A stretch of 64,000 nt of DNA from Phoronis australis (lineage: Eukaryota; Animalia; Phoronida): NCBI GenBank assembly GCA_002633005.1, contig NMRA01000279.1, forward strand, positions 321,233-385,232. Direction: 5' to 3'. Below, piece by piece: positions 6,883-64,000 of this stretch. The notes below the pieces were generated by a model. That model saw only the letters and a program-made list of their open reading frames with translations, was not told the DNA's origin and did not search any database. Both the position numbers and the translations under genes were made by a program. Position 1 is the first letter of the stretch. Each line of letters begins with the position of its first letter.

Positions 6883-6960
6883 TCTGAAAAATTACAAAAT
6901 AATTAAGAAGTTCTCTTCAAAGTTCACTCCAGGAACAATTGTATCAATAGATGCATGCAT

Positions 6961-7010
6961 ACCATAAGAACAACAGACCATAAGAACAACAGACCAGAAC
7001 AACAACAAGC
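6961..7010. repeat. 16-bp minisatellite (ACCATAAGAACAACAG)n
   Basis: 2-3 units here; longer array at 11319-11450. Confidence 0.8.
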
Positions 7011-8944
7011 ACAACCACATCTACAAGAAAACAACGAAATGTGTAATACAAAACAACAGAAACATTCATTGCAATCATTCTCCATGACTATAGACACATT
7101 ATCATTTCAAGCAGGTTTAGCACTGAGAAGATAAAATATCTGCTGATGATAATTGAAGCAGGAAGACCAATTAAACCAAAACTTTGGCTAACATCAAAGC
7201 TACAGCTGCAAACACACGTTTTCATGAGCAAAGAAACAAACTCGATATATAGCTCTAGTCTGGGTTTCTGCTCAGGGCGATCAAATTCTGGATCTCAAAA
7301 ACCAGAGGGTGGCGATAAAGTTGAATAAAAACCATTTTTGAGGATGAGTGTAGAAGCTTCATCGAGTGGTCGATTGCCAATGTCGAACTTCAAATGCAAG
7401 AGTCGAATAAAAGCTGGGAAGACCATGCATAATGAATAGTAATACGAGTACCATAGTAGACTCCTCTGAAACTGTCCGATCATAACTCAAAGGTATGAGA
7501 GTTCAACTGATTTGCATATTATATGTTGCCAAGAGCCATAAACAAAATGTTGAAACACCATATCATAGTCATAACAAAGGTGAAGGAAAACTGTTATCAC
7601 ATGTATGGTTCCAGGTGTGACATAAAGTTGAATTTAAGCCTAAATCACGTGACAATCATAGGCGGACTTAGGGGGGGCGGGGGCNAGCGTTAGGAAATAT
7701 TGAGTTTACTAACTCTGGTAATGACATGACGAAGCAGCTGAAACAAGGTGTAGGAAGCGCCCCCCCCCTTTTTTTTAGTTGTGCGGTTGCATTTCAGCAA
7801 GGAGGTTCACAGTCTGAGAACTCCAAGCCCTCCTTCATTTCTGGGTGCGCGCATGCAATCGTGCTTTACGCGATTGCCCGAGACAGAGTACTGGGCCCCA
7901 CTTTATTGTATATCCTAGATCTATCACTGGCAATGGCCAGTTGCCTATTGGCTCATTGCTTTGGATTTTAACTGCCTTGCACGCAGCCCAAGTTCAATTT
8001 CCAGTGTCGTGGGAAATGCTATCTATAACTGAATGACATTTTGCACGTGCAGATTGAAGACGATAATAACGAGGGGACTAGTGCACCAGGCCATTCTCTC
8101 ACTACAGTCTGACTTTATATTCCATGGCTACAACATGAATTCAAGCCAGTGGCTTGTATGAAATGTTTTTTCAATCCCTGAATCAGTTAAAGCAGACAAT
8201 ATCAAAACACTTCCAAGATACAACCCTTTCTTGAAAGACATTTTTAGGGATTAATAAAAGCAATACTGAATTTGGTTTAGAGGAATCCTGGAACACGCAA
8301 TTTCCAGTTCTTGCAAAGGTTCCCCGGCAAGTGAAATAAGGTTTACAGTCCTCACTACATTTGTTTCATGAAAAAAGTGGACGGGGCCCTTATTTCACGG
8401 CAAGTCTATGTCGGGCCAATGAATAGGCCGCTTGGCTCTCACCTCTGCAGCCCAGATTCAATACACATCATCAGCAGAGGAATTTTCTACAAGGGTACTT
8501 GACGCATACTATTTCCAGGGTACAGAATGTCTTTGACACCACCAGGTGGCAGTGAACATGTGGATTTCTCTTCAGAACATCAAAAATTGCAATCTTTTTG
8601 CAAACATTTGGTTGGCAAATTTGTCAAGCGGCAGCCAAGCGGTGTTGTGACTTCCGGGTGTGAAATTCAGCCAGATAAAGTCTCTCTAAAGAGCTTGCTA
8701 AGTGGCAATTGCCTCTTGGCTGAATAGTTTGGATGCTGAGCTCTCATGCGGTAAACTCTGGTTCAAATCTCAGTTGTTAGCAGAATTTTCTACAATGACA
8801 CCAAACAATAGTAGAACCCATGACCAGACAGAATGTCAGCACTCTTCTTGGGGCAGTTTGGAGTCACGCTTCACTGGGCTTCAGTATCTGCAGTAGAAAC
8901 CCAGACCAGAAACGTGGTGGACCTGAGGGAGCAGGCAGCATGCT

Positions 8945-9208
8945 CATGCGCGCAACCAGGCAGGGCTCGGGGGCTCGAATGAGACCCCATTTGGCGAGAT
9001 GGACAAAAAGGTCCGCCTCAGAGATACAAAAAGTCAGAGAAAAGGAGACAAAAAGTCCACTGAAATTGTGCAAACGCACAATTCACAGCTCTGGATGTGG
9101 TACAGTGGCACCCTGCTTTTTTTAGTCCTTCGGCTTTTTTGTCGGTAAAAGGTCCACACCGTCAGAACTTCGAGCCCCCCTGCTTATTGAAGGCTGGGTG
9201 CGCGGATG
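8945..9208. mobile_element. hAT-like MITE (copy 1)
   Basis: Imperfect TIR CATGCGCGCAACCAG / CTGGGTGCGCGGATG; flanks ATGCT / ACGCT; duplicate at 13307-13570 has a perfect 5-bp ACGCT TSD. Confidence 0.55.
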
Positions 9209-9974
9209 ACGCTTGATCAGTAGCCGCAGAAGAGAGAAGACTGCTGTGACATGTGACTTCCAGATATGACATTCAGCCAGATAAAACCTCTATAAATGCC
9301 AAGTGGCAATTGCCTCTTGGTTGTGAATCGTTTAGACGTTCGGCTCTCACACATGTATAACCCGTAGGCATAGGCTCAAGTCCCAGAGTTACTGAAATTT
9401 TCTACACAACAGTGACAGTCAGAGGGAACCAGTAATAGTCTTCTGATTCAATCTGATTGACTTTTGTCAGCTGAATACCTGGAGACATGGAATCAGCGGA
9501 TTTTGACCCAATTTGACCATGAACATATTAAGTCTAAATCATGAGTGTGGTTATGATGACAGACAGAAAACTAGGTCGTGGACACTTCATGAATATCTTC
9601 ATATTATTACATAACTTGATTTCAAAGACAAACACACCAACCTGAGTTATATTCAAGGGACGTATTGCTGCAAATAATAGAAAAAATGTTAGATCGCCGA
9701 CCAAAGAATATTGTTCTTACCAGAGATTGATTGATAGACTACCTACTCACTCTATTGAGTCTATTCAGTGACCAATGACCGGGCAGGCGTCGGGTCACTC
9801 GGCTGTCACTGTCCAGTTTCTAAATTATGTCATCATCTTGGCGGAAAACCACTATTTGTCTCAGAATAACACGTTAGCTGGTTAGTGAAAACAGGCAGAA
9901 AAAGAGCAGATGTCGAGGAAAAACTCATGATGAAACCTTGTAAATCAGATTAATAGAAAGAATCGCGTCCTTAC

Positions 9975-10101
9975 CATTCAAGAACCAAATTCAGACTGCG
10001 GACCGATCAGCTGGAGTCTAGAACACAAGAATCACGTTGACCGTGCCTGCTTTGACCTTTATGAAACCTTTTCGTGACGTCAAAGACAACTTATGACGCA
10101 A
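9975..10101 (-). promoter_or_regulatory. Candidate promoter and non-coding first exon of the HIGD1A-like gene (duplicated at about 14322-14441)
   Basis: Minus-strand donor ATG|gtaagg at 9975/9974; CpG-rich; perfect CRE TGACGTCA at 10075-10082, TGACGCAA near 10094-10101, TGACCT half-sites. The first coding exon has a splice acceptor one base before its ATG, so an upstream non-coding exon must exist. Confidence 0.4.
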
Positions 10102-10627
10102 CATTGACCTGTTTAACGAAATTGCCATGCCAGTATTGCAATAGTAAATTAATAATATTAAATTAATATTATGCAGGCATTGAGAGACACGTTGAATATT
10201 GGTGTTTTCTCAAACAAGTTTTCAGAAAGTTCGAAACTTTCATTGTAAATTTTGTACCATACATCAACTTCCGTTAAGGTCATGTGATATTATGCTTTCG
10301 TACGAAACTGATCAGCTACAAAAACGACCACATAGGTGTAATTTTCTTGGTATCGCCAATGTATATCGATAATTAAATCCAATGAGCTTGTCAGAAGTAT
10401 TTATATCAGTCAGGTAAGTAAACGTGGACTCTAATATCAGTAAAAATTCACCGTGTTCAAAGTCAGTCTCGAACCTGATAGAGATGCCGGTGTGATACAC
10501 AGATAGACTCATAGTGTACCTAATTATCGGACGGACCCTAAATATCGGACATTTCATAAAATCTTACTTGAAGAATAATCTGTGGTAATTGTTTACAATA
10601 TGATGGCATTGACCTACACACATGATT

Positions 10628-11057
10628 ACTCGGCGGAATTCTTCGAATTCCGACAAGTATGTTGCTCTGTCGTCAAGTTTTTTTTTTTTTGTTCGCACTC
10701 TACAGGTTGCAATTTTCGTCCGATTTTCACGAAATTTGCACACAACGTGTAGATCGGAAAGTCCTGGAAGCCTATTGTTTTTGGTCATAATCGGATACAA
10801 AATGGCGGACGTGGCGGCCATTTTGCATCCGATTTCACAGTCAAATGCTTGTAGAGGCCGCACTTTTCGACCTACATGGCTGAAAATCGGTACGAATATA
10901 CTAGAACGCATGTGCTACAATTGTGCAGAAAATTGTTGACTTCCGGTTAAAGATGGCGGAAATATTGGACGTGGCGCATGCGCACCCCGAAATATGGCTA
11001 AAAACGTTTTCTCCTGTAGAGGGCGCAATTGCAAACCAATCACTTTCAAACTGGTCA
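10628..11057 (+). mobile_element. Helentron/HINE-like insertion present only in duplicate copy 1 (truncated by gap)
   Basis: Sequence diverges from copy 2 right after CATGATT; starts with perfect hairpin CGGAATTC-TTC-GAATTCCG (10634-10652) followed by internal repeats containing AAAATGGCGG..GACGTGGCG. Confidence 0.55.
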
Positions 11058-11318
11058 NNNNNNNNNNNNNNNNNNNNNNNNNNNNNNNNNNNNNNNNNNN
11101 NNNNNNNNNNNNNNNNNNNNNNNNNNNNNNNNNNNNNNNNNNNNNNNNNNNNNNNNNNNNNNNNNNNNNNNNNNNNNNNNNNNNNNNNNNNNNNNNNNNN
11201 NNNNNNNNNNNNNNNNNNNNNNNNNNNNNNNNNNNNNNNNNNNNNNNNNNNNNNNNNNNNNNNNNNNNNNNNNNNNNNNNNNNNNNNNNNNNNNNNNNNN
11301 NNNNNNNNNNNNNNNNNN
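11058..11318. other. Assembly gap (run of N)
   Basis: N bases; single N also at 7685, 25463 and 27056. Confidence 0.99.
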
Positions 11319-11450
11319 AACAACAGACCATAAGAACAACAGACCATAATAACAACAGAGCATAATAACAACAGAGCATAATAACAACAGACCATAAGAA
11401 CAACAGACCATAAGAACAACAGACCATAAGAACAACAGACCAGAACAACA
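11319..11450. repeat. 16-bp minisatellite (ACCATAAGAACAACAG)n
   Basis: About 8 units abutting the gap. Confidence 0.85.
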
Positions 11451-13306
11451 ACAAGCACAACCACATCTACAAGAAAACAACGAAATGTGTCATACAAAAC
11501 AACCAAAACATTCATTGCAATCATTCTCCATGACTATTATATAGACACATTATCATCTCAAGCAGGTTTAGCACTGAGAAGATAAAATATCTGCTGATGA
11601 TAATTGAAGCAGGAAGACCAGTTAAACCAAAACTTTGGCTAACATCAAAGCTACAGCTGCAAACACACGTTTTCATGAACAAAGAAACAAACTCGATACA
11701 TTGCTCTAGATTGGGTTTCTGGTCAAGGCGATCAAATTCTGGATCTCAAAAACCAGGGGGAGGGGATAAAGTTGAATAAAAACCATTTTTGAGGATGAGT
11801 GTATAAGCTTCCTCGAGTGGTCGATCGCCAATGTCGAACTTCAAATGCAAGAGTCGAATAAAAGCTGGGAAGATCATGCATAATGAATAGTAATACGAGT
11901 ACCATAGTAGACTCCTATGAAACTGTCCAATCATAACTCAGAGGTATGAGAGTTCAACTGATTTGCATATTATATGTGGTCAAGAGCCATAAACAAAATG
12001 TTGAAACACCATATCATAGTCATAACAAAGGTGAAGGAAAACTGTTATCACAGGTACGGTTCCAGGTGTGACATAAAGTTGAATTTAAAGCCTAAATCAC
12101 GTGGCAATCACAGGCGGATTTAGGGGGGGGGGGTTAGTCCTGCGGTTGCATTTCAGCAAGGAGGTCCACAATCTGTGAAGTCCAAGCCTTCCTTCATTTC
12201 TGGGTGTGCGCATGCAATCGTGCTTTACGCGATTGCCCGAGACAGAGTGATGGGCCCCCCTTATGGTATCCTAGATCTACCACTGGAAATGGCCAGTTGC
12301 CTATTGGCTCATTGCTTTGGATTTTAATTGCCTTGCACGCAGCCCAAGTTCAATTTCCAGTGTCGCGGGAAATGCTATCTATAACTGAATGACCTTTTGC
12401 ACGTGCAGATTGAAGACGATAATGACGTGGGGACTACAGCACCAGGCCATTCTCTCACTACAGTCGGACTTTATATTCCATAGCTACAACATGAATTCTA
12501 GCCAGTGGCTTGTATGAAATGTTTTTTCAATCCCTAAGTCAGTCAAAGCAGACAACATCAAAACACTTCCAAGATACAACCCTTTCTTGAAAGACATTTT
12601 TAGTAGGGATTAATAAAAGCAATGCTGAATTTGGTTTAGAGGAATCCTGGAACACGCAATTTCCAGTTCTTGCAAAGGTTTCCCGGCAAGTGAAATAAGG
12701 TTTACAGTCCCCACTTCATTTGTTTCATGAAAAAAATTGGATGGGGCTCTTATTTCACGGCAAGTCTTATGTCGTGCCAATGAATAGGCCGCTTAGCTCT
12801 CACCTCTGCACCCCAGATTCAATACAAACCATCAGCAAAGGACTTTTCTACAAGGGTACTTGACGCATACTATTTCCAGGGTACAGAATTTCCTGTGACA
12901 CCGCCAGGTGGCAGTGAACATGTATATTTTTCTTCAGAACATCAACAAATTGCAATATTTTTGCAAACATTTGGTTGAATTTGTCAAGCGGGAGCCAAGA
13001 GGTGTTGTGACTTCCGGGTGTAAAATTCAGCCAGATAAAGTCACTCTCTAAATCGCTTGCTAATTGGCAATTGCTTCTTGGCTGAATAGTTTGGATGCTG
13101 AGCTCTCATGCGGGAAACCCTGGTTCAAATCTCAGTTGTTAGCAGAATTTTCTACGTTGAAACCCAACAATTGTAGAACCCATGACCAGACAGAATGTCA
13201 GCACTCTTCCCGGGGCAGTTCGAAGTCACGCTTCACCAGGCTTCAGCATCTGCAGTGGAAACCCAGACCAGAAACGTGATGGACCTGAGGGAGCAGGCAG
13301 CACGCT

Positions 13307-13570
13307 CATGTGCGCAACCAGGCAGGGCTCGGGGGCTCGAATGAGACCCCATTTGGCGTGGTGGACAAAAAGGTCCGCCTCAGAGAAACAAAAAGTCAGA
13401 GAAAAGGAGTCAAGAATTCCACAGAAATTGTACAAACGCACAATTCACAGCTCTGGACGTGGTACGGTGGCACCCCGTTTTTTTTAGTCCTTCGGCTTTT
13501 TTGTCGGTAAAAGGTCCACACCGTCGGAACTTCGAGCCCCCCTGCATACTGAAGGCTGGGTGCGCAGATG
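13307..13570. mobile_element. hAT-like MITE with 5-bp TSD (copy 2)
   Basis: TIR CATGTGCGCAACCAG / CTGGGTGCGCAGATG; ACGCT at 13302-13306 and 13571-13575. Confidence 0.6.
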
Positions 13571-14857
13571 ACGCTTGATCAGTAGTCGCAGAAGAGAGAG
13601 GAGTGCTGTGACATGTGACTTCCAGATATGACATTCAGCCAGATAAAACCTCTCTAAATGCCAAGTGGTAATTGCCTCTTGGTTGTGAATCGTTTAGACG
13701 TTCGGCTCTCACACATGTATAACCCGTAGGCATAGGCTCAAGTCCCAGAGTTACTGAAATTTTCTACACAACAGTGACAGAGGGAACCAGTACTACTACT
13801 ACTTCTGATTGACTTTTGTCAGCTGAATACCTGCAGACATGGAATCAGCGGATTTTGACCCAATTTGACCATGAACATATTAAGTCTAAATCATGTGTGA
13901 CTGTTATTATGACAGACAGTATACTAAATAACTAGGTCGTGGACACTTCATCTTCATATTATATAACTTGATTTCAAAGAAGAGAAACACACCAACCTGA
14001 GTTATATTCTAGGGACGTATTGCTGCAAATAATAGACAAAATGTTAGATCGCCGATCAAAGAACATTGTTCTTTACCAGAGATTGATTGATAGACTACCT
14101 ACTCACTCTACTCAGTGACCAATGACCGGGCAGGCGTCGGGTCACTCGGCTGTCACTGTCCAGTTTCTAAATTATGTCATCATCTTGGCGGAAAACTACT
14201 ATTAGTCTCAGAATAACATGTTAGCTGGTTAGTGAAAACAGGCAGAAAAAGAGCAGATGTCGAGGAAAAACTCCTGATGAAACCTTGTAAATCAGATTAA
14301 CAGAAAGAATCGTGTCCTTACCATTCAAGAACCAAATTCAGACTGCGGACCGCTCAGCTGTTCTAGAACACAAGAATCACGTTGACCGTGCCTGCTTTGA
14401 CCTTTATGAAACCTTTTCGTGACGTCAAACTTATGACGCAACATTGACCTGTTTAACGAAATTGCCTTGCCAGTATTGCAATAGAAAATAAATAATAATA
14501 AATTAATATTATGCAGGCATTGAGAGACACGTTGAATGTTGGTGTTTTCTCAAACAAGTTTTCAGAAAGTTCGAAACTTTCATTGTAAATTTTGTACCAT
14601 ACATCAACTTCCGGTAAGGTCATGTGATATTATATTATGCTTTCGTACGAAACTGATCAGCTACAAAAACGACCACATAGGTGTAATTTTCTTGGTATCG
14701 CCAATGTGTATCGATAATTAAATCCAATGAGCTTGTCAGAAGTATTTATATCAGTCAGGTAAGTAAACGTGGACTCTAATATCAGTTAAAATTCACCGTG
14801 TTCAAAGTCAGTCTCGAACCTGATACTATAGTCATAGATGCCGGTGTGTGATACACA

Positions 14858-16240
14858 TAGTGTACCTAAATTATCGGATGGACCCTAAATATCGGACATT
14901 TCATAACATCTTACTTAAAGAATAATCTGTGGTAATTGTTTACAATATGACGGCATTGACCTACACACATGATTTTGGTATCGTTCGATTCCTCACAACA
15001 TTATCTTTCCAAAAATATATGAATTTATCCCCTATTGCTTTTCCTCTGTATTTTATCGTCGAATTGCGGTTCGCACTATTTCCCGGTTGACACGGCCATG
15101 TTAGCTCAACTAAAGATTACAGTGACACCTGTTGTTAATGAATGAAACGGCATCATCGATTCTGAATGGTGCTTGCCTGCGCGAGATTTCTCCTAAAGTT
15201 TTCCTGACATAATATGGAGGAACAAGTAGCAGCATTTCACCTGTTCCAATTTTTTTTATAATTGTGATCATTTGACCATTTTTCCACGAAATTGTCTGAA
15301 GTGATGCCAGTTCAACAACTTCCGCTGTTTTCGTGCTAACAGATGCGTACCAGGGTTACTATAGGATCGAATTAGAACCCTTGGCACCGTAACTCGGGCG
15401 GGGGATAGACGAGTCTCGGTCAATTTGACCTTATGAAAAGCGACGATATATGGAAGTCAGTAGATTAGTTAAGTTTTTGACTGCCAGGTGACTCCTTCCA
15501 TTCAACATGGCGGTATTACTACCGCGTACCGGGAAATAGTGCGAGCAGAAATTTCATGATAAAAGACGGGGTAGGAAGAATTTCTGTGTATTTTTGGAAA
15601 TATAACTTTGCAAGAAATCAAACGATACTAAAATCATATGTGTAAGTCAATGTCGTCATATTGTAAACAATTACCTAATCTGTGAATTAAATGACACCAA
15701 TTTTTGTTCCACTGTAATGCATTCAATGTCCGGCACCGTCTGGTTTTTTATAGCGTACTTGCCTCGTTTTGATTTCACTGAGAGAGGGTGCAATTTAGAC
15801 ACCCAAGTCGGCCTAAAATGGACAATTGCATAAATCGGTTATAAAAGTTGAAAACAAAATATTTTTCCTCAATGAAACCATCTCACTGAACTGACAATAT
15901 GTCACTGTTCCATTTTTTTATTTGTTTTTAAACTCAAGTCAAACCCTGACCGCGCACGTGCGGGTGTCATATCAAGAAGCCAAAGAGATACTAAAAGCTG
16001 CTATGAGTTTGCACGTGCTTTAGTCGTCTGCACTGATTCATCAAAACGACTTGGCGCCGTCATCAGATTTCATTTTATGGATAATTTTGTTGCTAATGGA
16101 CCTGTGTTCTAGCAGCATATACGTCAAAACACTCGAGCTGAAATTTGGCTACAAGGTGCCTGCGGCCATTACGTGGTTAGTCAGTTTTCCGCAGTCTGGT
16201 GTATGGGAAAACATGTTGTCCGATATTTAGGTTCTCCGAA
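14858..16240. mobile_element. Older TIR element (MITE) hosting the Merlin-like MITE
   Basis: CCTAAATATCGGACA at 14884-14898 and its reverse complement TGTCCGATATTTAGG at 16217-16231; outer ends degenerate. Confidence 0.45.
14931..15675. mobile_element. 745-bp MITE with long TIRs and 8-bp TSD (Merlin-like)
   Basis: TIR GGTAATTGTTTACAATATGAC... / ...GTCATATTGTAAACAATTACC with inverted similarity extending about 170 bp (CGCACTATTTCCCGGT / ACCGGGAAATAGTGCG); TAATCTGT duplicated at 14923-14930 and 15676-15683. GG termini with 8-9 bp TSD are Merlin hallmarks. Confidence 0.8.
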
Positions 16241-19419: not shown

Positions 19420-22400
19420 ATGAATAGTCAGCTTGGAGACAAGGACAGGCGTGTGATTAAGGAGCTGGCTGTCCTCCTCCGCAGCAGTGGTATGTGCTTG
19501 TTACTTCTTTTGTTGTGAGAAATACTTGATTGCCGTAATGTTTGTAGCGTAACCACCTTCTGATTTGCTCTCGTTTTGCCCATGACAGTGAGTTTTTCCG
19601 TCAATGTGATGGCATGTATTAATACTTAAAAGTCCATGGAAACAATGAATAGTATATACATTGAATATACTTATATTGTTACGGTTATGTAGGACCATAG
19701 AAAAATTTTGAATTTTGGTCAAATTCCAGGGATATTCTTGATCAGGTTTGAACCTGTGCCCTTTGGGGAACCTGATGATGGAAAACTGGCTTTTTCCAAA
19801 AATTGTGCCCAACAGACTAAATGTAATTAAAGTAGTAACATATGAAGCAGAAACCCCATGAGCAATCGAAAAAAGAAGAGACTCATAGTCATGTAAAATT
19901 TGCATTTTTATTTAAAAATTCCATACAAAAAGCCAATCTGACATAGACTTCAAACAGACTGTTCAGGTGTGGCGGAGTAAAAATACACTGACTATAAAGT
20001 TGACTAGAATCTTGCATTTTTGTAAGAGTATTGTGTTTTAATAGATGCTCCTGAGGGGTGCACTGCTGCAATGTACTGGTGCCTTATTATTTTAAGCGCT
20101 AATGGCGCAAAGGCGCCGTCCAGGAATATCCCTGAAATTCCTATGAAACTGATAAGGTTCCATATAATCTTAACTTTCATATTCATTTGATGCTTTGGGC
20201 AAAAACCTGGATTGTCTCTTGGTTCTTCTAAACTCAGCTGATAGGATTCTCATCAAGAAATCCTTCCAGTTCCACAGTCACTGAAAAGAGGTCAAACCTG
20301 TATGGAGAAAATACATGTTTATATTGAATTTAAGCGTTAATTTTCACCTCTTTTTTAACTAGTACTTCACATCCGCATTACATTTCCTGTAATTCTGTTT
20401 GTTTTAGTTGACAAAATCCTGAGTGGCGAGAGTAAGTTATGTCTGACAACTGTCTCACTCACTTTGCTCAACGCTGGTTTCCAAGATGTCTACCAGGGTG
20501 ACTCACAGAATTCGTTTGAAGTGGTCACTCATAATCTTCCTGGTCAGTTGACCTTGGATGACCTGTTCTTTCTCTATGATGTCGTACAAAAGACCCTGTC
20601 TCTGAAGGTTTGTAGCCTATTAATATTTTGAGAACACAGTCTAGGCCACACACAAACCTTTTTAAGCGCCCACATATTTATGTTTGGACACATTATGTCA
20701 TGATCCTCCGTCCGTCCGTCTGGCATCCATCCGGCATTGGTCCGGCGTCCGCTGCTCTATCTCTAAAACGCTTTGACGTATGTTCATGAAATTTTGTACA
20801 TGTGTTCCTTGCAAGGATGGGACAGCATGAGCCAACTTTCGGACGGATCTGGCTGCCGGTGTGCCCCCTAGTGGTAATTTTATTTTTTACGTTTACCTCT
20901 GTATCTTCAAAGGTCCTCAACGTATTTTCATAAAACTTGACATGTAGGCATCTATTAGTGAGATGACACTATGCACCCGTTTTTGTATGGATTTGACATA
21001 ATTTGCACCCCTAGTGGTGATTTTTACCGTTTTCGAGTCTGTTTTTTGGCATCCACTCCTGTATCAACAAAACTGCTCTAACAATGACTGTGGAAATTGG
21101 CATGTATGCTTTTGCTATGAAGAGGACGACTGACAATGATTTTCCAACGACATCGACAACTGTGGCAGTTTTATTTTGCGCCCATGGCTGTGGGTTTACC
21201 CACTGTATGATCTTTATTGAATTTAGTAAGTGTAGTTATATGAAGCTAACGACAGACGACGGCTTTCAGGTGGATCCAACGAATGCTCTGCCTTGTAGTG
21301 GCAATTTCATCTTTTTCCATTTGAAGTTCCTTGACAGATTTTTATGAAATTTGTTAAATAGCTTTCTCTTAAAGAAGCAGTGACATGTTCCTTTTTTCTA
21401 ATGGATTCGATGTATCTGCGCCATGTAGTGGCCATTTTTATTCGTTGGCACATTTCAACGCTCCGCGTTGCTCTTGTTGTATGTAAAGAAATGTTAATCT
21501 TCAAAAAATTAGATGTTCTAGGGTAAACAGAATATCAGATACACCTAGGGCCAGGTTTCCCGTTGAGACATCTTGCAGAACTGGACGATGTTCCTCAGTC
21601 TTTGATGATTTAACTTACATTTGCAAGCAAACATTGTGCATTTTGATTCTTAAAAAATTGCAGACTGAGAACCAGAATGCGTTTTAGTTTTTGTGATATA
21701 TTCCATATTGCGATCAGAGAACTTACTCCAGATGTGCCAACAAGGCATAACATAAATCCAAATTACTATGCCATTGTTTCCGTTCAGTGCACAGCTGTTG
21801 ACACTAATTATCTTTTATTCAGACAATGTGATTATGTCACGCAAACATTTTTAAAACATCCTAGGTCTAGCAACATGACACCATTATTTAGAAGACTTGC
21901 CACAAAACTGGTCTTGTCTTTATTCATACTGGGATGAAAAAGATCAGACCATCCACACCGAAAAGCCAACTTTTTGAGCCTGGTTTTTAGCAATAATGAA
22001 CTCAACAGTTCTCCCCAAGGCCAGAAATCACCCCCGTTACAACACTGATCTAAATAAAAGGTTAGTTTTTTATTCTGACACAAGGCGGGTTCATTGAATT
22101 TTTTAATTATTACTGTTTTGTCTGTAGATCATTCACACGTCGACCACTCTGCAAGGCCGGGTGTCCATATCTGACTTCAGGTATCTGAGGACTCTTGAGA
22201 TCAAGAAGGCACCCATCCATTTGCTGCAGGGCTTTCAAAAAATCCGGTCCAAGCTGCACACCATCATATGTTCAAGGTCCCTCAATCATCTTCAAGTAAG
22301 TTTTCAGCTGGTGATGGTGAGAAGGTGCTTCCCAACACGGGAGACAACTACTGCCCAACATGGGAGATAACTGCTGCTGAACATGGGAGACACTAGAGAT

Positions 22401-25400: not shown

Positions 25401-28400
25401 TTGTATTTTTATTCTCTCTAGCATGGGTATTTACAATTTACACGACACAATAAACAATACAGNTTTCAGCTCAGTCTTGGCGAGAATCCTCTTTCATTTC
25501 ATGAGAATCACCGACTGCTGACTATTCAGTACATTTCTGACATTGCTGCACCCAAGGTAGTGGAGGGTAACATGCTATACTTGGTCATGCAACACTTACT
25601 TAATAGTTACATAGTCTTGCTCTAATTGAACTGTTACTATAGGCTGCAGAACAATTACCACAGAAAGGGACCTGCATTATTCTCCACAAAGCATTTATCC
25701 TGCAAATCATTCACTTAATCCATTAAGGGTTCCGTAATTGTCGGATTTAACCTTTCCCACATTTTGAGAACCAGTTTTCTCCACAGAATATCGGGCATCA
25801 GACTGGTTCTCATAATCAAGATATGAGCATGTTATATCTGACTATTGTCCATAGTAAGCGGGCCCTGTGCATGTTTGTAGTTCAGACTGCACGATAACTG
25901 TTTTTTGTGTGTGGCTCTATTGTGTTGGCAGAGAATGGGATAATTGAAACTTGCGCTTCAGTTCACAAAAATTTACTGGGGCTTTGGCTTAAATTTTCAC
26001 CTGTACGAGGATCCTCTTGAATTCTCTGCACCTAAGTATGGGAAAATAAGGGACTTTATGGTAAGCATTGTAGTCATGACTGACAAGATTGTCATGTAGA
26101 AAGTAAATAGTTTTCATTATCCACAGTAAGGGCTCTGCTCCATGGAAAGGTTTCGGTGTTCAGTCCTATTGGCATACAATGCATGTTGTGTAATTCCAAT
26201 TTCTGGGTGAATTTCTGTTGAGCATTAAATGCTTAAGTTCATCAAATCGCGACTACGACCAACATTTGCCAGCCTAATTTAAATCCTCTCAAGTTCTCTA
26301 AAACAGAGCAGCATAATTAGCAAAATAAGGTTTTTATACTGAAATTATCACAAACATGGCAGTCATCACTGACAAGATTTTGTGTCATTCTTTCCTTTTT
26401 AGCTTGAACTTGATGGAGAGTTGGTCTCAAGGTCAGAGTTGAAAGTAAGTACTCTAAATGTTCGATGATATGTTCACAAAATTTCTTTGTAGGAAATAAC
26501 ATTGAAATGTATCACCTGAGTCGAGTTCAATAATTCTAGGACCTCGTTAGAAAAGCAAGTTCTCACCAAATTCCACTAGATATCGCCTTATGTTTTCAAT
26601 GATTGCACATGATTTTGACTAGATTTTTCTCACTGTGAGATAGCTATTCAACTCTAACGTGATCTTCTCACTTCAGTATATATCGAGGTCGCGACTGACT
26701 TCGTCAGCTGATCACCGTGAAATGCGCACAAGCAGCATGTCATCTGCTTCGGTCAATGTGTCGTCTGCTTACAAGTTTGAGAATTCTGAGGAGATCGCCA
26801 CGTCACTTCGCACCAGGAAGAAGAAGAAATCACACTTGATTCATCGTAAAATCATCGCCGATCTGACTGATGACACAACTCAGTCGAGTCACGAGAGTTC
26901 ACGAGGTCAGTTTGTAGTGAGCACAGGACACGCATTTTTGTCTGCTTGTTTTTGTGTTCGTTTTCTAGTCATGGTACTGTTTAGTGATTCATTTTGTGCT
27001 GAACGAGAGTCCAGCATGTTACATGTCATGTAATAACTGGCTACCAATGAATGTTNTTCCAAAAAGTTTGTAGATATGTTCACATGTAACATTAACATAA
27101 TTTATGAACCCCTTCTATCCAGGCCTAGAAGCGCTGTCAAGCCTTGAAGAGCTGGACCTTTCCTTCAACTCTCTAGCTGAGCACGGTCAGCTGCAGCCAT
27201 TGTGCTCACTGAATCAACTACGCTGGGTGAGTCTTGTAGAATTATTAGCAGTGGTTCGGGTGTGCGTACGTACTATGTGCTCGGTTGTAATGTTGATTTT
27301 CATGCGTGTCTTGCTTGGGGTCACTTCTATTCAATCAGTATCTTCAGCTACGTGGTTCATGTACTTTAGGGTCAAACTTGGAAGCCCAAAGAATGTACCC
27401 AGTACCCAGGAAGTACCTAGAAATCAAACCTTAGGATTCCTAGCAATCCAATCGTTAGGCGACTTTTTGTCCCCTCTCTCCTGGTCTCATGTAGCAAGAA
27501 ATGAAACCAGTGCTGAGATACCAACAAAATCTCATTTGAATATTGATGCATCAACATTAATGGTTTGAACTGGATTCTGGTAAGATACAAATATTCTTTT
27601 TTATAATACCATAATTCTGTGATGTCAGAGTTATAAAGCGTGTTTCAAACCTTAATATGATGCTTTCCATTTCAGCTCAGTCTTGGCGAGAATCCTCTTT
27701 CATTTCATGAGAATCACCGACTGCTGACTATTCAGTACATTTCTGACATTGCTGCACCCAAGGTAATGGAGGGTAACATGCAATACTTGGTCATGCAACA
27801 CTTACTTAATAGTTACATAGTCTTGCTGTAATTGAACTGTTACTATAGGCTGCAGAACAATTACCACAGAAAGGGACCCGCACTATTCTCCACAAAGCAT
27901 TTACCTCGCAGATCATTCACTTCCATTAAGAAGTGCACATGGTAAGGGTTCCGTAATAGCCGGACTTAACCTTTCCCACATTTTGAGAACCAGTTTTCTC
28001 TACTGAATATCGGGCATCAAACTGGTTCTCAGAATCAAGATTTGAGCATGTTATATCTGACTATTGTCCATAGTATGCGTGCCTGTGCATGTTTGTAGTT
28101 CAGGCTGCATGATAACTGTTTTTTGTGTGTGGCTCTATTGTGTTCGCAGAGAATGGGATAATTGAAACATGCGCTTCAGTTCACAAATTTACTTGGCTTT
28201 GGCTTGAATTTTCACCTGTACCAGGATCCGCTTGAATTCTCAGCACCTAAGTATGGGAAAATAAGGGACTTTATGATAAGCACTGTAGTCATGACTGACA
28301 AGATTGTCATGTAGAAAGTATATAATTTTCATTATCCACAGTAAGGGTTCTGCTCCATGGAAAGGTTTCGGTGCTCAGTCCTATTGGCATACAATGCATG

Positions 28401-30795
28401 TTGTGTAATTCCAATTTCTGGTTAAAGTTCTGTTGAGCATTAAATGCTTATAAGTTCATCAAATCACGACTATGACCAACATTTGCCAGCCTAATTTAAA
28501 TACTCTCAAGTTCTCTAAAACAGAGCAGCTTAATTAGCAAAATAAGGTCTTTACATTGAAATTATCACAAACATGGCAGTCATCACTGACAAGATTTTGT
28601 GCCATTCTTTCCTTTTAAGCTTGAACTTGATGGAGAGTTGGTCTCAAGGTCAGAGTTGAAAGTAAGTACTCTAAATGTTTGATGATATGTTCACAAAATT
28701 TCTTAGTAGGAAATAACATTGAAATGCATCACCTGAGTCGAGTTCAATAATTCTAGGACCTCGTTAGAAAAGCAAGTTCTCACCAAATTCCACTAGATAT
28801 CGCCTTATGTTTTCAATGATTGCACATGATTTTGACTAGATTTTTCTCACTGTGAGATAGCTTTTCAACTCTAACGTGATCTTCTCACTTCAGTATATAT
28901 CGAGGTCGCGACTGACTTCGTCAGCTGATCACCGTGAGATGCGCACAAGCAGCATGTCATCTGCTTCGGTCAATGTGTCGTCTGCTTACAAGTTTGAGAA
29001 TTCTGAGGAGATCGCCACGTCACTTCGCACCAGGAAGAAGAAGAAATCACACTTGATTCATCGTAAAATCATCGCCGATCTGACTGATGACACAACTCAG
29101 TCGAGTCACGAGAGTTCACGAGGTCAGTTTGTAGTGAGCACAGGACACGCATTTTTGTCTGCTTGTTTTTGTGTTCGTTTTCTAGTCATGGTACTGTTTA
29201 GTGATTCATTTTGTGCTGAACGAGAGTCCAGCATGTTACATGTCATGTAATAACTGGCTACCAATGAATTTTGAATGTTCATAGTATCGTTGCCAGGATT
29301 TGTACACCATCAAAGCTACTCTCTGTCTCCATTCAAGTCATTGATTTTGCACAATTGATTTATAATGAACCTAAAAAAATGATCACTGTTTTATAAGACG
29401 CTGGTGTGCAGCAGGGTAGTTATTACAGCTCTTGTCCACTTTTTATGCATCCCTTAGTTTTGAATTCTCAACTGCCAAAAGGCCTATTAAATCTGTGCTG
29501 GGTTACATTAAGATTCCGGAGTTATCTGCATCTAAAGTTTACTCGTCGTACGATTACCAATTGTAATGTTTGTGAGGCTAAGCTATTTTTTTTTCACACG
29601 GTGCACCTTGTATGCAACTCGTTGCTGGTGATTGTCTAAACTGTAATGCAACTGGTCCAGGCTGTTATTCATTCTCAGCGTTTCTTAATTTCGTAGCCTC
29701 CACACCACCCCTTGATCTTCCCAATGTTGAGGAGACTCGCCGCCAGATGGAGCTGGCGCGTGAACATCAGAAGGAGTATTGGCTGCATTCCTTGAACAAA
29801 CAACATAACAGCAATCTGCTGGACATTAGTAATGAGACTGAGGATGACATCTATCTGAATGAAAAGGACACTGCACTGGACACTGGTGAGAAGGAGAGGC
29901 TCACTCAGGTGAGTTGGAGACAATTTAGGAAAGCATGCACATCCCAGGATGTAGATTTGTGGGATGCAAGTCATCCAATAAGGGATCCAGAAAATGTCAT
30001 GTTGGCAATCATCTGCTCAGTAACCTTGTGGATGATTTTGGGTAAATCCTTCCTGTATCCTGCTTTGGATGATTGCTGTGTTCCACAATCCTTTGTGTAT
30101 GTGACATCTATGCTGTTCGTAAACGGAACAGTTGTCTGCTTTTCAGTGAGAACTGCATTAATTAGCTTTTGATTGGCTTCATTAACATTATTTATCCTCT
30201 GTCTGTTCATACTTTATAAAATAATGTAAACTCCAGGAGACTGTGCAAGACTTAAATTGTTTGTGAGTCATGTGACTTAGTCATTTCAGGTCATTATCCT
30301 AGGCTGGTGCTTATTTTCACCCAAGTCTATTGAAGTTTGAGTCATCAGCTGTAGTCAGGCACTGCTGTATTCTTGTTGGCGTACGGTTATTGGTCACAAG
30401 ATGGCGCAAGTTTCTTTTTTATTTCACATTTAGGAGGTAATCGTAAGCTGTGAGTACATGTGCTTCAATCTTTCTTAGACGAAAGCAGATGTTCATGAAA
30501 CAAAGACTTCTGATGAAGATGCAACATTGAAAACCGTGTTGACAGCATCTGAGTCAGACACATTGACAGAGAATGGAGTGAGGTTTGTGGGAGTGGAAGA
30601 AAGTTTGGGTGAAAGTGAACATGGCAGGGAAGAACAATTGGAGAAAATTTTCAAGACGCGGAAAGATAATGACCTCTGGAGGACTATGTCAGAACAACTG
30701 ACATCGGCAGGTAAGCCTGTCTGCTGTCAAACAAAGAACTTCCATTAATAGACACGTGTGTGAATTAACACACACACATACGCGCATGCACACAC

Positions 30796-58838: not shown

Positions 58839-58878
58839 GGGTCCTCGGTAGCTCAGTTGGAAGAGCACAAGACCGGCA
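58839..58878 (+). mobile_element. tRNA-derived SINE head (A box), truncated
   Basis: GGGTCCTCGGTAGCTCAGTTGGAAGAGCAC resembles a tRNA 5' half but runs into a (CGGCAGAG)n repeat with no T arm. Confidence 0.5.
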
Positions 58879-59348: not shown

Positions 59349-62216
59349 TTTTTTCGCCTTTTTGGCCCATTTTCACCATAGCAGAACCCAGTCAATATCC
59401 AAACTTTTGGTTTGTTTAGATATTGAATAATTTGCTGCGTTGCCTAGGCTCACATATTCTACAGTTCTTTTTATTACAGAGTGTAAACTTTAGTTTTTAA
59501 CCCTCTTTACAGTAGGTGAGGGTTAGAAACGCAGAATTTCACAAATTTCGGAACGAGTGCCTGTTCTATGACGAACCCTACCATTTCTCAATGATTAAGC
59601 ACAACTTCGCCTAGGTGATTCTGAAAGTGACTCAAGTTATTCCAAGTCATATCAAAGCAAATGCTTACTTGATAAAATAAATTTCTTTTCTACTGTTGAC
59701 AGTTGAAAATTGTAATTTTTAAAATGGCCACTCGTAACGCGAAAAATGCATGAAATTCTTAGACAAAAACACGCGTAAATTTCTCAGACGTCCGATTTTT
59801 TGCACAACTAAATAAATCTTTGCATTTGAGATTCAGTTTGCATTTGGTCAGTGACCAAAAAGATTATTTTAGACCGTAACACAGTCAACTCTCGAATATG
59901 GACCATGGTTGTGATTTAGCCGTTAGCTAAATATGTGTGTTTTGTGCGTTAGTGTGAGTGCGTGTGTGTGTGTGCGTGTCTGTTACTGTTTTCAATTGTT
60001 GTGCAATGTTTAACTGCAATGTTCCATTCAACTAAAAAAAAACAACAACGGCAACAACAAACGCTGTCGGGTGTTTTTGAGTGCTGCAACTCCCTGTTGT
60101 CAATATTATGTGTGACGAAATCTTTCAAACTGATATTCACTGTCGCTAAGGCAAACTAAATGCCAATTGTCGGAAATTCTGTTCGAAATCAAAATTGCCA
60201 GGCGCAATATATTGACGTTAAATGCCAAGGTAGCATCGTGTCTGCGCACATCGCAAGAGCAGCGTGAGACAACCGACGTCACGTTCTCGCTCAAGTCGTA
60301 TAAAGAGCAAATAATTTCAAAGGCAACGAGGAAAAGAAATTGGACGCCTTCCAACTATTCCGTCTATTTTTTAGTGGTTGTGAATGACTGCCTCCGAACA
60401 AAGGACGTTATATCACGGAAACGACACATTACTATTTTAAATGAGTTTGGAGTCGCTTTCGATGGAGTAGATCTAATTTAAAATGTTGTATTATTATTTG
60501 ATACATCTCCAACTTGATTCAGCTCATTAACGTTTGAAACTTAACAAAAATGTTGATTTCATCAGTTCCCTGTTAACGCGATCAGAAAAGCACCGTCACC
60601 ACGCCATTTCAGGGTTTACAGTGAAGTTTTTACTTCAGAAGTGGCAGCACCCAACTACCGTAAACGTACTACATTGCAGATACACCAATGTTTTTGTAGA
60701 CACGCCAGTGCTCCAGCCTCCCATCTCAGAAAATGGTGACGATTGATATGTGTCATCATACATTATGTTAATGAAATTTCATCCATTGAAAACATCAGGT
60801 TGGTGAAAGGTAGAGAATTTGACCGGGGCTGCCTAAAAACGTAACTTTCTGTTTTAATAGTTTCGCCAAAATATTAATTAATGAATCTAAGTATTTAAGT
60901 AACTTCCTGGTCACGACACCTAGTCCAGTCATGTTCGGCAGAACGGACGAATCAAAAGATTTTTTGAGTATTAAAAAACTTTTGTTAAGCCTTTCATGAT
61001 GATCAAGACAGACACGATTTTATTGTTATTATGTTGTTATTCGATAGGATTCTTTTTAGATAACCCTCAACTCCAATCCAGTTACTTAGACGGCATACAT
61101 GCAATCGACAAAAAACACCTAGAGGATCCAAACATCAAGGAAGCAATGCTTTTGTTTAAAATATCCTTATTATAAGGTGTTTCTTAAGAAACGTGAAGTA
61201 TACCTAATGGAGGCATAATTTGATTGTTAGCAGATCAAGGAAGTCTAAAAGAAGCCCACTCGCATTACAACAAACAAGCACGATACAAAACAATGAAATT
61301 AATACTAAGTATTCTCGCTCATTTGTTGAAACTTGAAAAATTGAATGAAAGCGATATTTTGCAATTGCAAATGTGTACATAATTGAAAAAGTTAACATAT
61401 TAATTATTGTGGAATAGAATACATCACTAATTGCAATTCTGTTCAGGCCCCCTGGTGCTGCCAACTAAACTTGAGTAAGGTGACGAGGGGTGTGAGGGTG
61501 GTACGAATGTATTACAGGATCTCTTCAGAAAGCAACACTCAGCACTGATGAAGATAAACTTATCGAAATATAAACAAATCCTCGACGCACGGCGTCGTAA
61601 GGGCCAGGACACCATGCACATAAATGTACACTATAAAGACAACTGTTGGGTGATGCAATCTCGTGCAGCGTGTTGGTATTTGATGCCTCAGAATCGTCAC
61701 TCCATGAAACGTCAACACGAACAATAAGGGGGATGTCTATTCAATGGAAATTGTGATTTATGTAGGGAAAAACACGTGACTCCAAGTAGTAACGTACGTG
61801 TACTGAGGTCATCGTCATACTACTGCAAAAATTTCGCTTGTATGTGTAGTTATGATGCCCAATAACCGAAATTATGTGTTCCACAAACATAGTTTAGGTT
61901 ACCTCACGGCAGATATTCTTGGTAGAAAGTGACATTATTTCTATTGGTTCTCGTCTTAAAATCCACTACCTTGGTAAAAAATTCAGTAGTATTTCGTGAT
62001 TGCTGTAGGCGACCTTCTTCATTCATTCATTTTTATTGCAAAGATGTTTTGAATGAAATGAATCAGTTTGTCTTTTTTACTTGCTATGTCACGAGCATAA
62101 AAAAATTGTAAAATGTTTTATCTTCTTTGCAATCACCCTGGATGTCAGCACGACTTCAATACAAGAAGTCGTGAGCTCCCGGACCTTCTTCCCACACGAA
62201 CGATCGTCATGAACTC

Positions 62217-62298
62217 TATAAAAACTGCACGTGCGTTACAGTCGGGTCGTCATCTAACGAAGATCTTTGGTTGTTCATGGGATCTTCTGGAGGACACG
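62217..62298 (+). promoter_or_regulatory. Candidate TATA promoter and first exon of the putative antimicrobial peptide gene
   Basis: TATAAAAA at 62217-62224, CACGTG at 62228-62233, Inr-like CAGT about 62239, consensus donor ACG|gtaagt at 62298/62299; an acceptor tttgcag| at 63422 lies 10 nt before the peptide ATG. Confidence 0.5.
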
Positions 62299-62580
62299 GT
62301 AAGTATTTGTGTGAGATTTATTCATTTAATTCAACTTAGGCTCTTTAGGTCAAAAACATTTAGTTGGTTTACTAGTTTACGCGCTATACAGTTTGGAGCT
62401 CTGCGCAAACGTGTGTTTGATGGAGGACTAACAATATGGCTGGCACTGCTGAATAACATTGAACCCCCTTTTTGCAGAAAAAACATATTTTACAAAACAC
62501 ATATACATAGCAAGTGTGCACACTTAGTCACAAATAACAACACTAGATACTAAGTATGATAGGTAGAGATTCTAAATAAA

Positions 62581-62915
62581 ATATGCAAGATCTTCCCACT
62601 TAGTTATGTGTCGCTCCAACTCAAAATTTTGCTTATAAATCAAGTAATCAACTTAAAAATAATCTATGATATAAACCCGTCAGTTATCAAAAATAGGTAC
62701 GGCTTCCTTAAGTTTCTCCCTATATATAAACATTTTTGTTACGCGAAATATGATATCATGTACAAACAAACTTTTATTGCAAAAACCTAACAACACCTCT
62801 TGCGGAAATATTTATATTGTTGTGAAAAATCTGCTTGAGCCAAACTAGTAATTCGTTCCACAAAATTTTAACATATCTACACTCCCAGAACAAATGTACA
62901 ATTGATTCTCCCCTT
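62581..62915 (-). mobile_element. Tx1/L1-type LINE ORF2 3' fragment
   Basis: ESIVHLFWECRYVKILWNELLVWL (zf-RVT HLFxxC motif) then, after a frameshift, EVLLG...IIFRVTKMFIYREK...P...*...ERHITKW typical of the ORF2 C-terminus; in-frame stops. Confidence 0.75.
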
Positions 62916-63432
62916 TTATGAACGTACAAAATTCGGTAGAAAAAACGCAAAACAACAAACAACTGCGCGTTATGTGATTTAGCCACATCCTTAGTTTCCA
63001 TTTCTGTTTGATGTTTTAAATTGGTGAAAGTAAAACAACGGACATCTTCAAATTGTCTAAATTCTCTTGTTTGTCCAGGGTTTTAGAATAATATACCTGT
63101 TGGGATGAAATGACGTGCTGTTTTATTGCCGTTATTAGCAAGCAACATGTCCCACACGAAACCATAATACAAGGACAAACTTGTGAGCAACAAGAAATCG
63201 CACAGTGCACTCAGACACATTGATGGTAGCTTTACCACCCCATAGAAGACGAATGAAACCAATCACAATCACGCTCATAAACCATTCACCATTGTTATTC
63301 TTTCATAACTATTATAACGTATCCTGTTACCACACTACTCATTGTTCATTATAATCGTCTGATCACCATGTTCATCGCCGTCGTCTTCGTTGCCGCCATC
63401 ATTATGTGCTGGCTATTTGCAGTTGAATCAAG

Positions 63433-63558
63433 ATGAACAAGACTATAATCTCCTTTCTCGTCCTCACCGTGCTGTTGAGCGTGGTGGTGGAGAACGACGC
63501 TTGGTTTGTTCGTGTGAGAAGGGTCTGGAGATGGGTCAAACGAAAGGCAGTCAACTAG
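63433..63558 (+). CDS. Putative secreted Trp/Arg-rich cationic (antimicrobial) peptide precursor; may continue in an exon beyond the window
   Basis: MNKTIISFLVLTVLLSVVVENDA-WFVRVRRVWRWVKRKAVN; purine at -3 (AAGATG); acceptor at 63421-63422; ends either at TAG 63556-63558 or at donor TA|gtaagt. Confidence 0.7.
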   Translation: MNKTIISFLVLTVLLSVVVENDAWFVRVRRVWRWVKRKAVN

Positions 63559-63584
63559 TAAGTTCTACATGCACACGTTGGTGT

Positions 63585-63910
63585 CGCTGCCAGGGATATT
63601 CCTGCACAGCGTCTTTGCGCCATTAGTGCATGAAAAAAAAAAAAAAAAATAAAAAGGCACAAGTACACCGCAGCAGTACGTCCCCAGGGTGCATCTTTTA
63701 AAACTCAACACTTACAAAAATGCAAGATTCTAGTCAACTTAGTCGGGTAAAACACGACTGTTCTTATTTCGATTGCTCTTGGTTTTTCTGTTTCATATGA
63801 TACCACTTAAATTACACTAAGTCTACGGGGCACAACTTTTTGAAAAAAGGCACACTTTTCATTATTAGGTGCGCCCAAAGGGCACAGGTTCAAACCTGGT
63901 GAGGAATATC
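63585..63910 (-). mobile_element. Dispersed repeat fragment, inverted copy of 19727-20135
   Basis: Direct sequence match described for 19686-20135. Confidence 0.7.
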
Positions 63911-64000
63911 TTTGCGGTGCAAAACAATGATTGTTGTTTTCAAGTATAATCACGCTCATGCGATACAATGTTCGTCATTTTTCGTTCGACGTTATAACTT

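Follow-up and report, generated by a model that had tools for sequence, protein, structure and literature searches.

A spliced, expressed gene of the phoronid Phoronis australis encoding a predicted secreted precursor of a cationic Trp/Arg/Val-rich peptide

The locus and its neighbours

The window, meaning the whole 64,000-nucleotide stretch of Phoronis australis DNA that was analysed (contig NMRA01000279.1, positions 321,233 to 385,232 of the forward strand), has a G+C content of about 38% and a CpG observed/expected ratio of 0.60, together suggestive of an invertebrate, and carries the small peptide gene described here within its last 2 kb. The C-terminus of GNPTAB lies at the opposite end (3-500; Stealth_CR4 by Pfam, with E 1.5e-48 to a solved GlcNAc-1-phosphotransferase), and its last 165 codons form one unbroken frame. 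Human GNPTAB has several introns in the corresponding part, and those of this 3' part may have been lost. A HIG1 protein is encoded at 3604-3900 (Pfam); of 10 relatives the only two with names are molluscan, at 55-58% identity. Weak Pfam matches below the cut-off point to two further genes, one of the LRR type spanning about 27-43 kb and one for an exonuclease/endonuclease/phosphatase at about 52.5-57 kb.

Several repeats were observed. Near-duplicate blocks within 6958-14974 (7775-10627 against 12134-14974 at 92.4%, and 6958-7681 against 11404-12133 at 94.9%) flank a run of N and arose either by tandem duplication or through the assembly of two haplotypes one after the other. Inside the LRR gene a 1.6-kb tandem duplicate (25464-29272; 95.5%), with an identical open frame at 26644-27030 and 28861-29247, is an exon duplication or an assembly artefact. 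The stretch 58840-58870 looks by eye like the 5' terminus of a tRNA-derived element; neither the Rfam nor the tRNA scan, both of which covered the whole window, matched anything. A dispersed element at 63591-63910, in intron 2 of the peptide gene, matched 19731-20134 in reverse orientation at 77-82% and drew reads on both strands in all three raw RNA runs described below. Around the peptide gene the CpG observed/expected ratio was 1.0 (60001-64000) compared to 0.60 window-wide, as in an unmethylated promoter region, and 60250-62300 held two CACGTG boxes and nine TGACG half-sites, with 2.5 of the latter expected.

Gene structure and expression

RNA was mapped to 61900-64000 from three raw runs (X1, X2 and X3) and one contig run (X4) carrying the same species label, at a likeness threshold of 90% and with 18-19% of each raw run sampled (11.0-12.8 million records). 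X3 placed 144 reads on this region, 73 of them at 99% identity or higher, with first mates on the minus strand. In most stranded libraries this orientation denotes plus-strand RNA. A TATA box (TATAAAA; 62217-62223, plus strand), putatively the promoter element, stands approximately 40-60 nt ahead of the first read 5' ends. X3 molecule ends gathered at 62265 (five) and 62279 (eight), with a depth of 0 in 62184-62254. Exon 1 (62255-62298, plus strand, start approximate) is 5' UTR for the main frame; it was covered at an X3 sense depth of 9.2 in the bin 62255-62325 and is followed by a GTAAGT donor at 62299.

The original prediction had drawn a gene model with an upstream exon, a splice acceptor, a consensus donor and a downstream exon, and the RNA reads agreed with it at each point. 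The predicted junction 62298>63423 was found exactly in 25 X3 reads with 12 different start places, skipping an intron 1 of 1124 nt (62299-63422, plus strand; GT..AG, with the AG at 63421-63422) that lies within the 5' UTR. Exon 2 (63423-63557, plus strand; 135 nt), over which a transcript had been expected, comprises 10 nt of UTR followed by codons 1-41, ends two bases into codon 42 and was covered in X3 at sense depths of 24.9, 65.3 and 20.5 in three successive bins, the peak lying in the bin 63462-63532. The predicted donor at 63557 (TA/GTAAGT at 63556-63563, with GTAAGT starting at 63558) was used by 35 X3 reads, which left exon 2 there with an agreement of 0.99 and a median loose length of 60. 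The sequence to which these reads continue is absent from the window, with no joint found within 63558-64000; this last interval (plus strand) is thus the 5' part of a phase 2 intron 2, and exon 3 lies past the window. The gene is spliced and expressed, and has at least three exons.

Exon 2 depth was at most 1 in both X1 and X2, whose reads over exon 1 differed from the window at several places; the contig run X4 gave no signal on the exons, which proves nothing. Expression looks sample-restricted (one of three raw runs), and diverged alleles missed at 90% likeness may explain the low depth in X1 and X2. An upstream ORF of 11 codons starts in exon 1 (62277-62298, plus strand), crosses intron 1 and continues at 63423-63436, its TGA (63434-63436) overlapping the main ATG. 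The ATG of this upstream ORF read ATA in X1 (6 of 6 reads) and X2 (4 of 4) and was unchanged in X3 (0 of 13), possibly reflecting an allele-specific translation brake, or reads from a diverged copy. Sense reads of X1 and X2 were also observed at a depth of 1-7 over 61900-62325 and 62468-62751, beginning upstream of the TATA box, crossing exon 1 and reaching intron 1; no splice was listed for them, and they depart from the window sequence in several positions. They stem either from an upstream transcript that overlaps the gene or from a diverged copy at another locus.

The open reading frame and the predicted precursor

On the plus strand the frame runs from the ATG at 63433 to an apparent TAG at 63556-63558, giving 41 residues. 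The original prediction took this for a complete ORF of 41 codons; its translation is as given and its gene boundaries were right, but the peptide length was wrong. The GT of the intron 2 donor completes the TAG, which is split by splicing. A consensus of the loose read ends gave 30 letters of exon 3 and begins with T, so that codon 42 is TAT (Tyr). Translated by hand, these 30 letters read Tyr-Ala-Val-Val-Lys-Gly-Ala-Thr-Ala-Leu-Leu with no stop, which extends the open frame by 11 residues or more and brings the precursor to a minimum of 52. Exon 3 must be longer than the 30 letters shown, since the median length of the loose ends was 60. Peptide coding therefore continues into exon 3, and the mature 18-mer that had been proposed to end at the stop is wrong unless the chain is cut at Lys-Arg. 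Intron retention yielding a true 18-mer as the main product was ruled out, since X3 had a sense depth of 0 in the intron 2 bin 63604-63674, and the 41-residue form is hence not the main product.

Residues 1-23 (63433-63501, plus strand) constitute a predicted signal peptide from their hydropathy, with Lys3, a hydrophobic core at residues 5-19 (Kyte-Doolittle nine-residue means of 2.8-3.0) and E-N-D-A before the predicted cut, for which Ala23/Trp24 appears the likeliest site. Residues 24-41 (63502-63555, plus strand), the first part of the predicted mature peptide, form a cationic Trp/Arg/Val segment. Both the layout originally described, an n/h/c hydropathy pattern followed by a cationic region, and its composition held up: residues 24-41 contain five Arg, two Lys, three Trp and five Val, no Asp or Glu and no Cys, with a charge of +7. 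The segment has a mean hydrophobicity of 0.41, a helical moment of 0.44 and eight polar residues, one of them Asn. The local helical moment peaked at 0.75 at residues 28-36, while that of the whole 18 residues was not above shuffles (p 0.15). A structure model from the single sequence, without an alignment, gave a helix at residues 2-40 with a mean pLDDT of 88.5 and a pTM of 0.38, weak evidence that the cationic region forms a helix. Dibasic sites occur at residues 29-30 and 36-38, the Lys-Arg being at 36-37. Residues 24-52 have no acidic residue and no Pro, and none of the at least 52 residues is Cys. The first 11 residues of exon 3 are Gly/Ala/Val-rich and prolong a small-residue hydrophobic stretch; they are neither the acidic propiece nor the amidation signal that had been suggested for a downstream exon, and any such element would sit in the rest of exon 3, beyond the 30 letters seen.

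Another reading is a small membrane protein that residues 5-19 would anchor without being cleaved, its basic stretch serving in the cytosol as a stop-transfer or lipid-binding tail. Positive charge is greater after the hydrophobic core than before it, the single-sequence model is one unbroken helix, and the residue at -3 of the predicted cut is Asn, which is less common there in signal peptidase sites. A core of 15 residues is, however, short for a membrane span, and the E-N-D-A that follows it resembles the c-regions of myticalin signals (PMC5577615) and Ciona signals (PMC7387483) in the available text of both papers. We give a membrane protein very little weight.

The rarity of the ORF was assessed across the window, which contains 307 stretches with an ATG and 41 open codons. 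Six were signal-like and two of those also had a charge of at least +4, namely the peptide ORF and the GNPTAB tail, of which only the peptide ORF has at least two Trp as well. Among 60 simulated sequences of 64 kb, the first two filters let through 0.3 stretches per window, and no sequence (0 of 60) yielded one that passed all three. These filters were chosen after the ORF had been seen and so indicate rarity rather than function.

Relatives, natural defence peptides and designed peptides

Protein, family and structure searches used the 41 residues of exon 2 alone as query; half of this is signal, making it a weak probe, and the absence of relatives is consequently not established. The exact 41-residue sequence was absent from about 15 billion sequences. 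Pfam returned no family at E up to 1, the PDB returned no match and the Atlas no usable one. HMMER over 1.84 billion representative proteins returned a single match (P0012; E 1.8e-5), which was rejected as a relative, being a singleton with four copies of a Val/Arg-rich repeat and no signal peptide. In metagenome DNA an exact 22-mer found no matches, and all 17 matches to a degenerate motif were chance (G+C of 54-64%, no signal ahead of the motif and unrelated sequence after it). No described peptide family matching the precursor was found in the searched literature, which is thin in subscription journals. Among proteins of 22-72 residues there was no candidate relative, and among those of 73-2000 residues none of eight candidates reached E 10 or lower, a weak test.

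The search among longer proteins bears on a reading in which the cationic stretch would do no more than tag the N-terminus of a longer protein that is secreted, for example a matrix, lectin-like or Cys-rich one, either binding anionic surfaces or forming a propiece removed at Lys-Arg. Such a protein would agree with a frame that is open as far as seen, an exon 3 that exceeds the letters shown and the two dibasic sites. Against it stand the lack of any match among the eight longer candidates, weak as that test is, and the 11 residues after the junction, which contain no Cys and resemble the tails of helical AMPs, among them the small-residue tail of KH.S908.1 in the available text of PMC7387483. 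We consider a longer secreted protein unlikely.

The precursor was then set beside natural AMP systems. Like indolicidin and tritrpticin the peptide is Trp- and Arg-rich and cationic. Those two are cathelicidins, in whose precursors a cathelin domain follows the signal. Here the cationic region instead follows the signal directly, with no Pfam match at E up to 1, and the peptide, unlike both, has no Pro. Cecropins have a two-part layout. Styelins are called cecropin-like and bromo-Trp is named among the modifications of marine AMPs (PMC10608444, available portion), and halocyntin and papillosin of Halocynthia papillosa, as presented in the accessible part of PMC4306955, share with the P. australis peptide an aromatic N-terminus, a cationic half and a Gly/Ala/Val-rich tail. 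Seven of 22 ungapped positions of halocyntin match the peptide by eye, for which helical periodicity alone may account (PMC4306955). The Arg and Trp content of the peptide is much higher than that given for halocyntin and papillosin, styelins and cecropins in the sources available.

The gene layout resembled that of the myticalins and modiocalins of mussels, as far as the available text of PMC5577615 describes them. These have a UTR-only exon 1 and an intron just ahead of the ATG, as here, and in myticalins the signal and a cationic region with Lys-Arg likewise share exon 2. The myticalin signal also has 23 residues, with Glu20 and an acidic residue at 22, as here, although only 4 of the 18 fixed positions of its consensus are identical (hand count). 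Myticalins are cleaved at Lys-Arg, and their intron 2 follows in phase 1 once this site and the first part of an anionic extension have been encoded; in P. australis intron 2 is in phase 2 and, set against the myticalins, residues 24-52 have neither the acidic residues of such an extension nor any Pro (PMC5577615).

A screen in Ciona (PMC7387483, in its available text) retained 18-residue windows with a hydrophobicity of 0-0.6, a moment of 0.1-1.0, a charge of 3-10, at least six polar residues and at least one uncharged polar residue, in precursors of 50-100 residues with an N-terminal signal and no Cys. It gave 22 candidates, and all five peptides tested that had passed the whole screen were active; four cationic amphipathic segments that an earlier step had eliminated showed weak activity or none. 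Residues 24-41 fall within every window limit (0.41, 0.44, +7, eight polar residues, one Asn), a comparison that leaves the aggregation and localisation steps aside, and against the length limit the precursor shows at least 52 residues, none of them Cys, with its end beyond the window. Most linear cationic alpha-helical AMP precursors in that study have an anionic C-terminal proregion. The 'novel' family, which includes KH.S921.1, shares several features with the present precursor: its 23-residue signal has the M-N-K start and the Ala end in common, it is Cys-free with a Trp- and Lys/Arg-rich helical region after the signal, and its acidic propiece is short or absent (PMC7387483). The signal consensus of that family is nevertheless distinct: by hand count only 6 of its 15 fixed positions agree, and its Glu is at position 19 rather than 20. 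The cationic region showed no match by eye to the 22 segments listed (PMC7387483). On its sequence features the precursor would work like that of a linear cationic helical AMP, and we have not placed it in any named family.

The original prediction had also noted a likeness to designed Arg/Trp/Val peptides, and this holds down to an exact match of seven residues. The heptad RRVWRWV at residues 29-35 (63517-63537, plus strand) is identical to the start of H-RWV12, -14 and -16 (PMC11504230 Table 1) and is the repeat unit of H-RWV16, while MAP-04-03, another designed peptide, has six of its residues in common (PMC8655503). In the available text H-RWV16 is membrane-perturbing, with mean MICs of 2.2-7.3 uM on seven species and 21-30% red-cell lysis (PMC11504230). 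The H-RWV series is synthetic and idealised, with a moment of 0.87 in H-RWV12 compared to 0.44 here, and has Arg-Arg after the heptad where the P. australis peptide has Lys-Arg (PMC11504230); unlike the series, the natural peptide contains the heptad once and adds a hydrophobic tail. As there can be no descent from a synthetic series, the likeness is convergence. Shuffling the 18 residues 400000 times produced the heptad in 244 cases. The match was, however, found after a search of a literature rich in Arg/Trp/Val designs and should be read as a sign of convergent chemistry rather than as a significance test. In the full-text literature searched, as far as its text was available, RRVWRW occurred only under laboratory peptide names (PMC11504230, PMC8655503).

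The red-cell lysis by H-RWV16 is in keeping with a secreted membrane-active or signalling peptide aimed at eukaryotes or the animal's own cells, such as a secretion with cytolytic or deterrent effect, a peptide of gametes or mucus, or a neuropeptide-like dibasic product. Precursors of this kind have the same grammar as those of AMPs, a screen of the Ciona type also recovered neuropeptide Y and peptide YY in frog (PMC7387483, available text), and the expression in one of three runs comes from tissues that are not given. The precursor has, however, no Gly ahead of Lys-Arg, no repeated peptide copies and no family match, and in the case of a neuropeptide seven basic residues in 18, if used as sites, would leave fragments. 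We judge this reading improbable.

A candidate lineage-restricted host-defence peptide

We interpret the gene as encoding a predicted secreted precursor from which a linear cationic host-defence peptide, restricted to its lineage, would be released to bind bacterial membranes, disrupt them and so kill the cells. The gene would then be of a familiar kind while its sequence is new, and we put the probability of this reading at about 70%. Residues 1-23 would route the precursor into the secretory pathway and signal peptidase would leave Trp24 at the N-terminus. The mature peptide most likely spans the exon junction and would have at least 29 residues, a cationic amphipathic helix followed by a small-residue hydrophobic tail. 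A cut at Lys36-Arg37 would alternatively give a product of 12 residues; the long product is preferred because the sequence after the Lys-Arg is not acidic and the Lys-Arg is not preceded by Gly. At the bacterial surface, Arg and Lys would bind anionic lipids and Trp would anchor the helix at the interface, making the membrane leak in the carpet-like manner reported for peptides of this kind.

Counted in favour of a defence peptide were the RNA-backed gene structure, the myticalin-like layout, the values within the window limits of PMC7387483, the signal length shared with myticalins and the Ciona 'novel' family, the local moment at residues 28-36 and the heptad match, the published comparisons being taken from the available text. 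Counted against it were the moment of the whole 18 residues (p 0.15), the four Ciona segments of little or no activity, the absence of a kappa-B-like site from the 2 kb upstream, where 1.3 loose matches were expected, and the absence of a paralogue in the window, where neither blastn nor tblastn found one (best other tblastn match E 0.024, to the hydrophobic part only). AMP families are usually multigene. The TATA box, the lack of homologues in the searches and the exon 2 depth of 65 in one run compared to at most 1 in two others fit a fast-evolving effector restricted to certain cells or conditions.

A more tentative proposal, which we would rate somewhat below an even chance, is that the gene founded a family of invertebrate defence peptides, lineage-restricted and so far undescribed, that independently reached RRVWRWV, the heptad selected by rational design for its most potent Arg/Trp/Val antibiotics, and placed it on a cecropin-like hydrophobic tail. 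If true, nature itself would offer a means of testing whether its optimum coincides with the designed one. Linear cationic defence peptides outpace homology searches and elude gene callers, so each confirmed gene enlarges a thinly sampled class. In P. australis the finding amounts to an RNA-supported gene model whose product has a core identical to the repeat unit of designed antibiotics of low-micromolar activity (PMC11504230, available text). If active, the peptide would be a cheap-to-make natural counterpart to the designed series, against which potency, salt tolerance and red-cell lysis could be compared.
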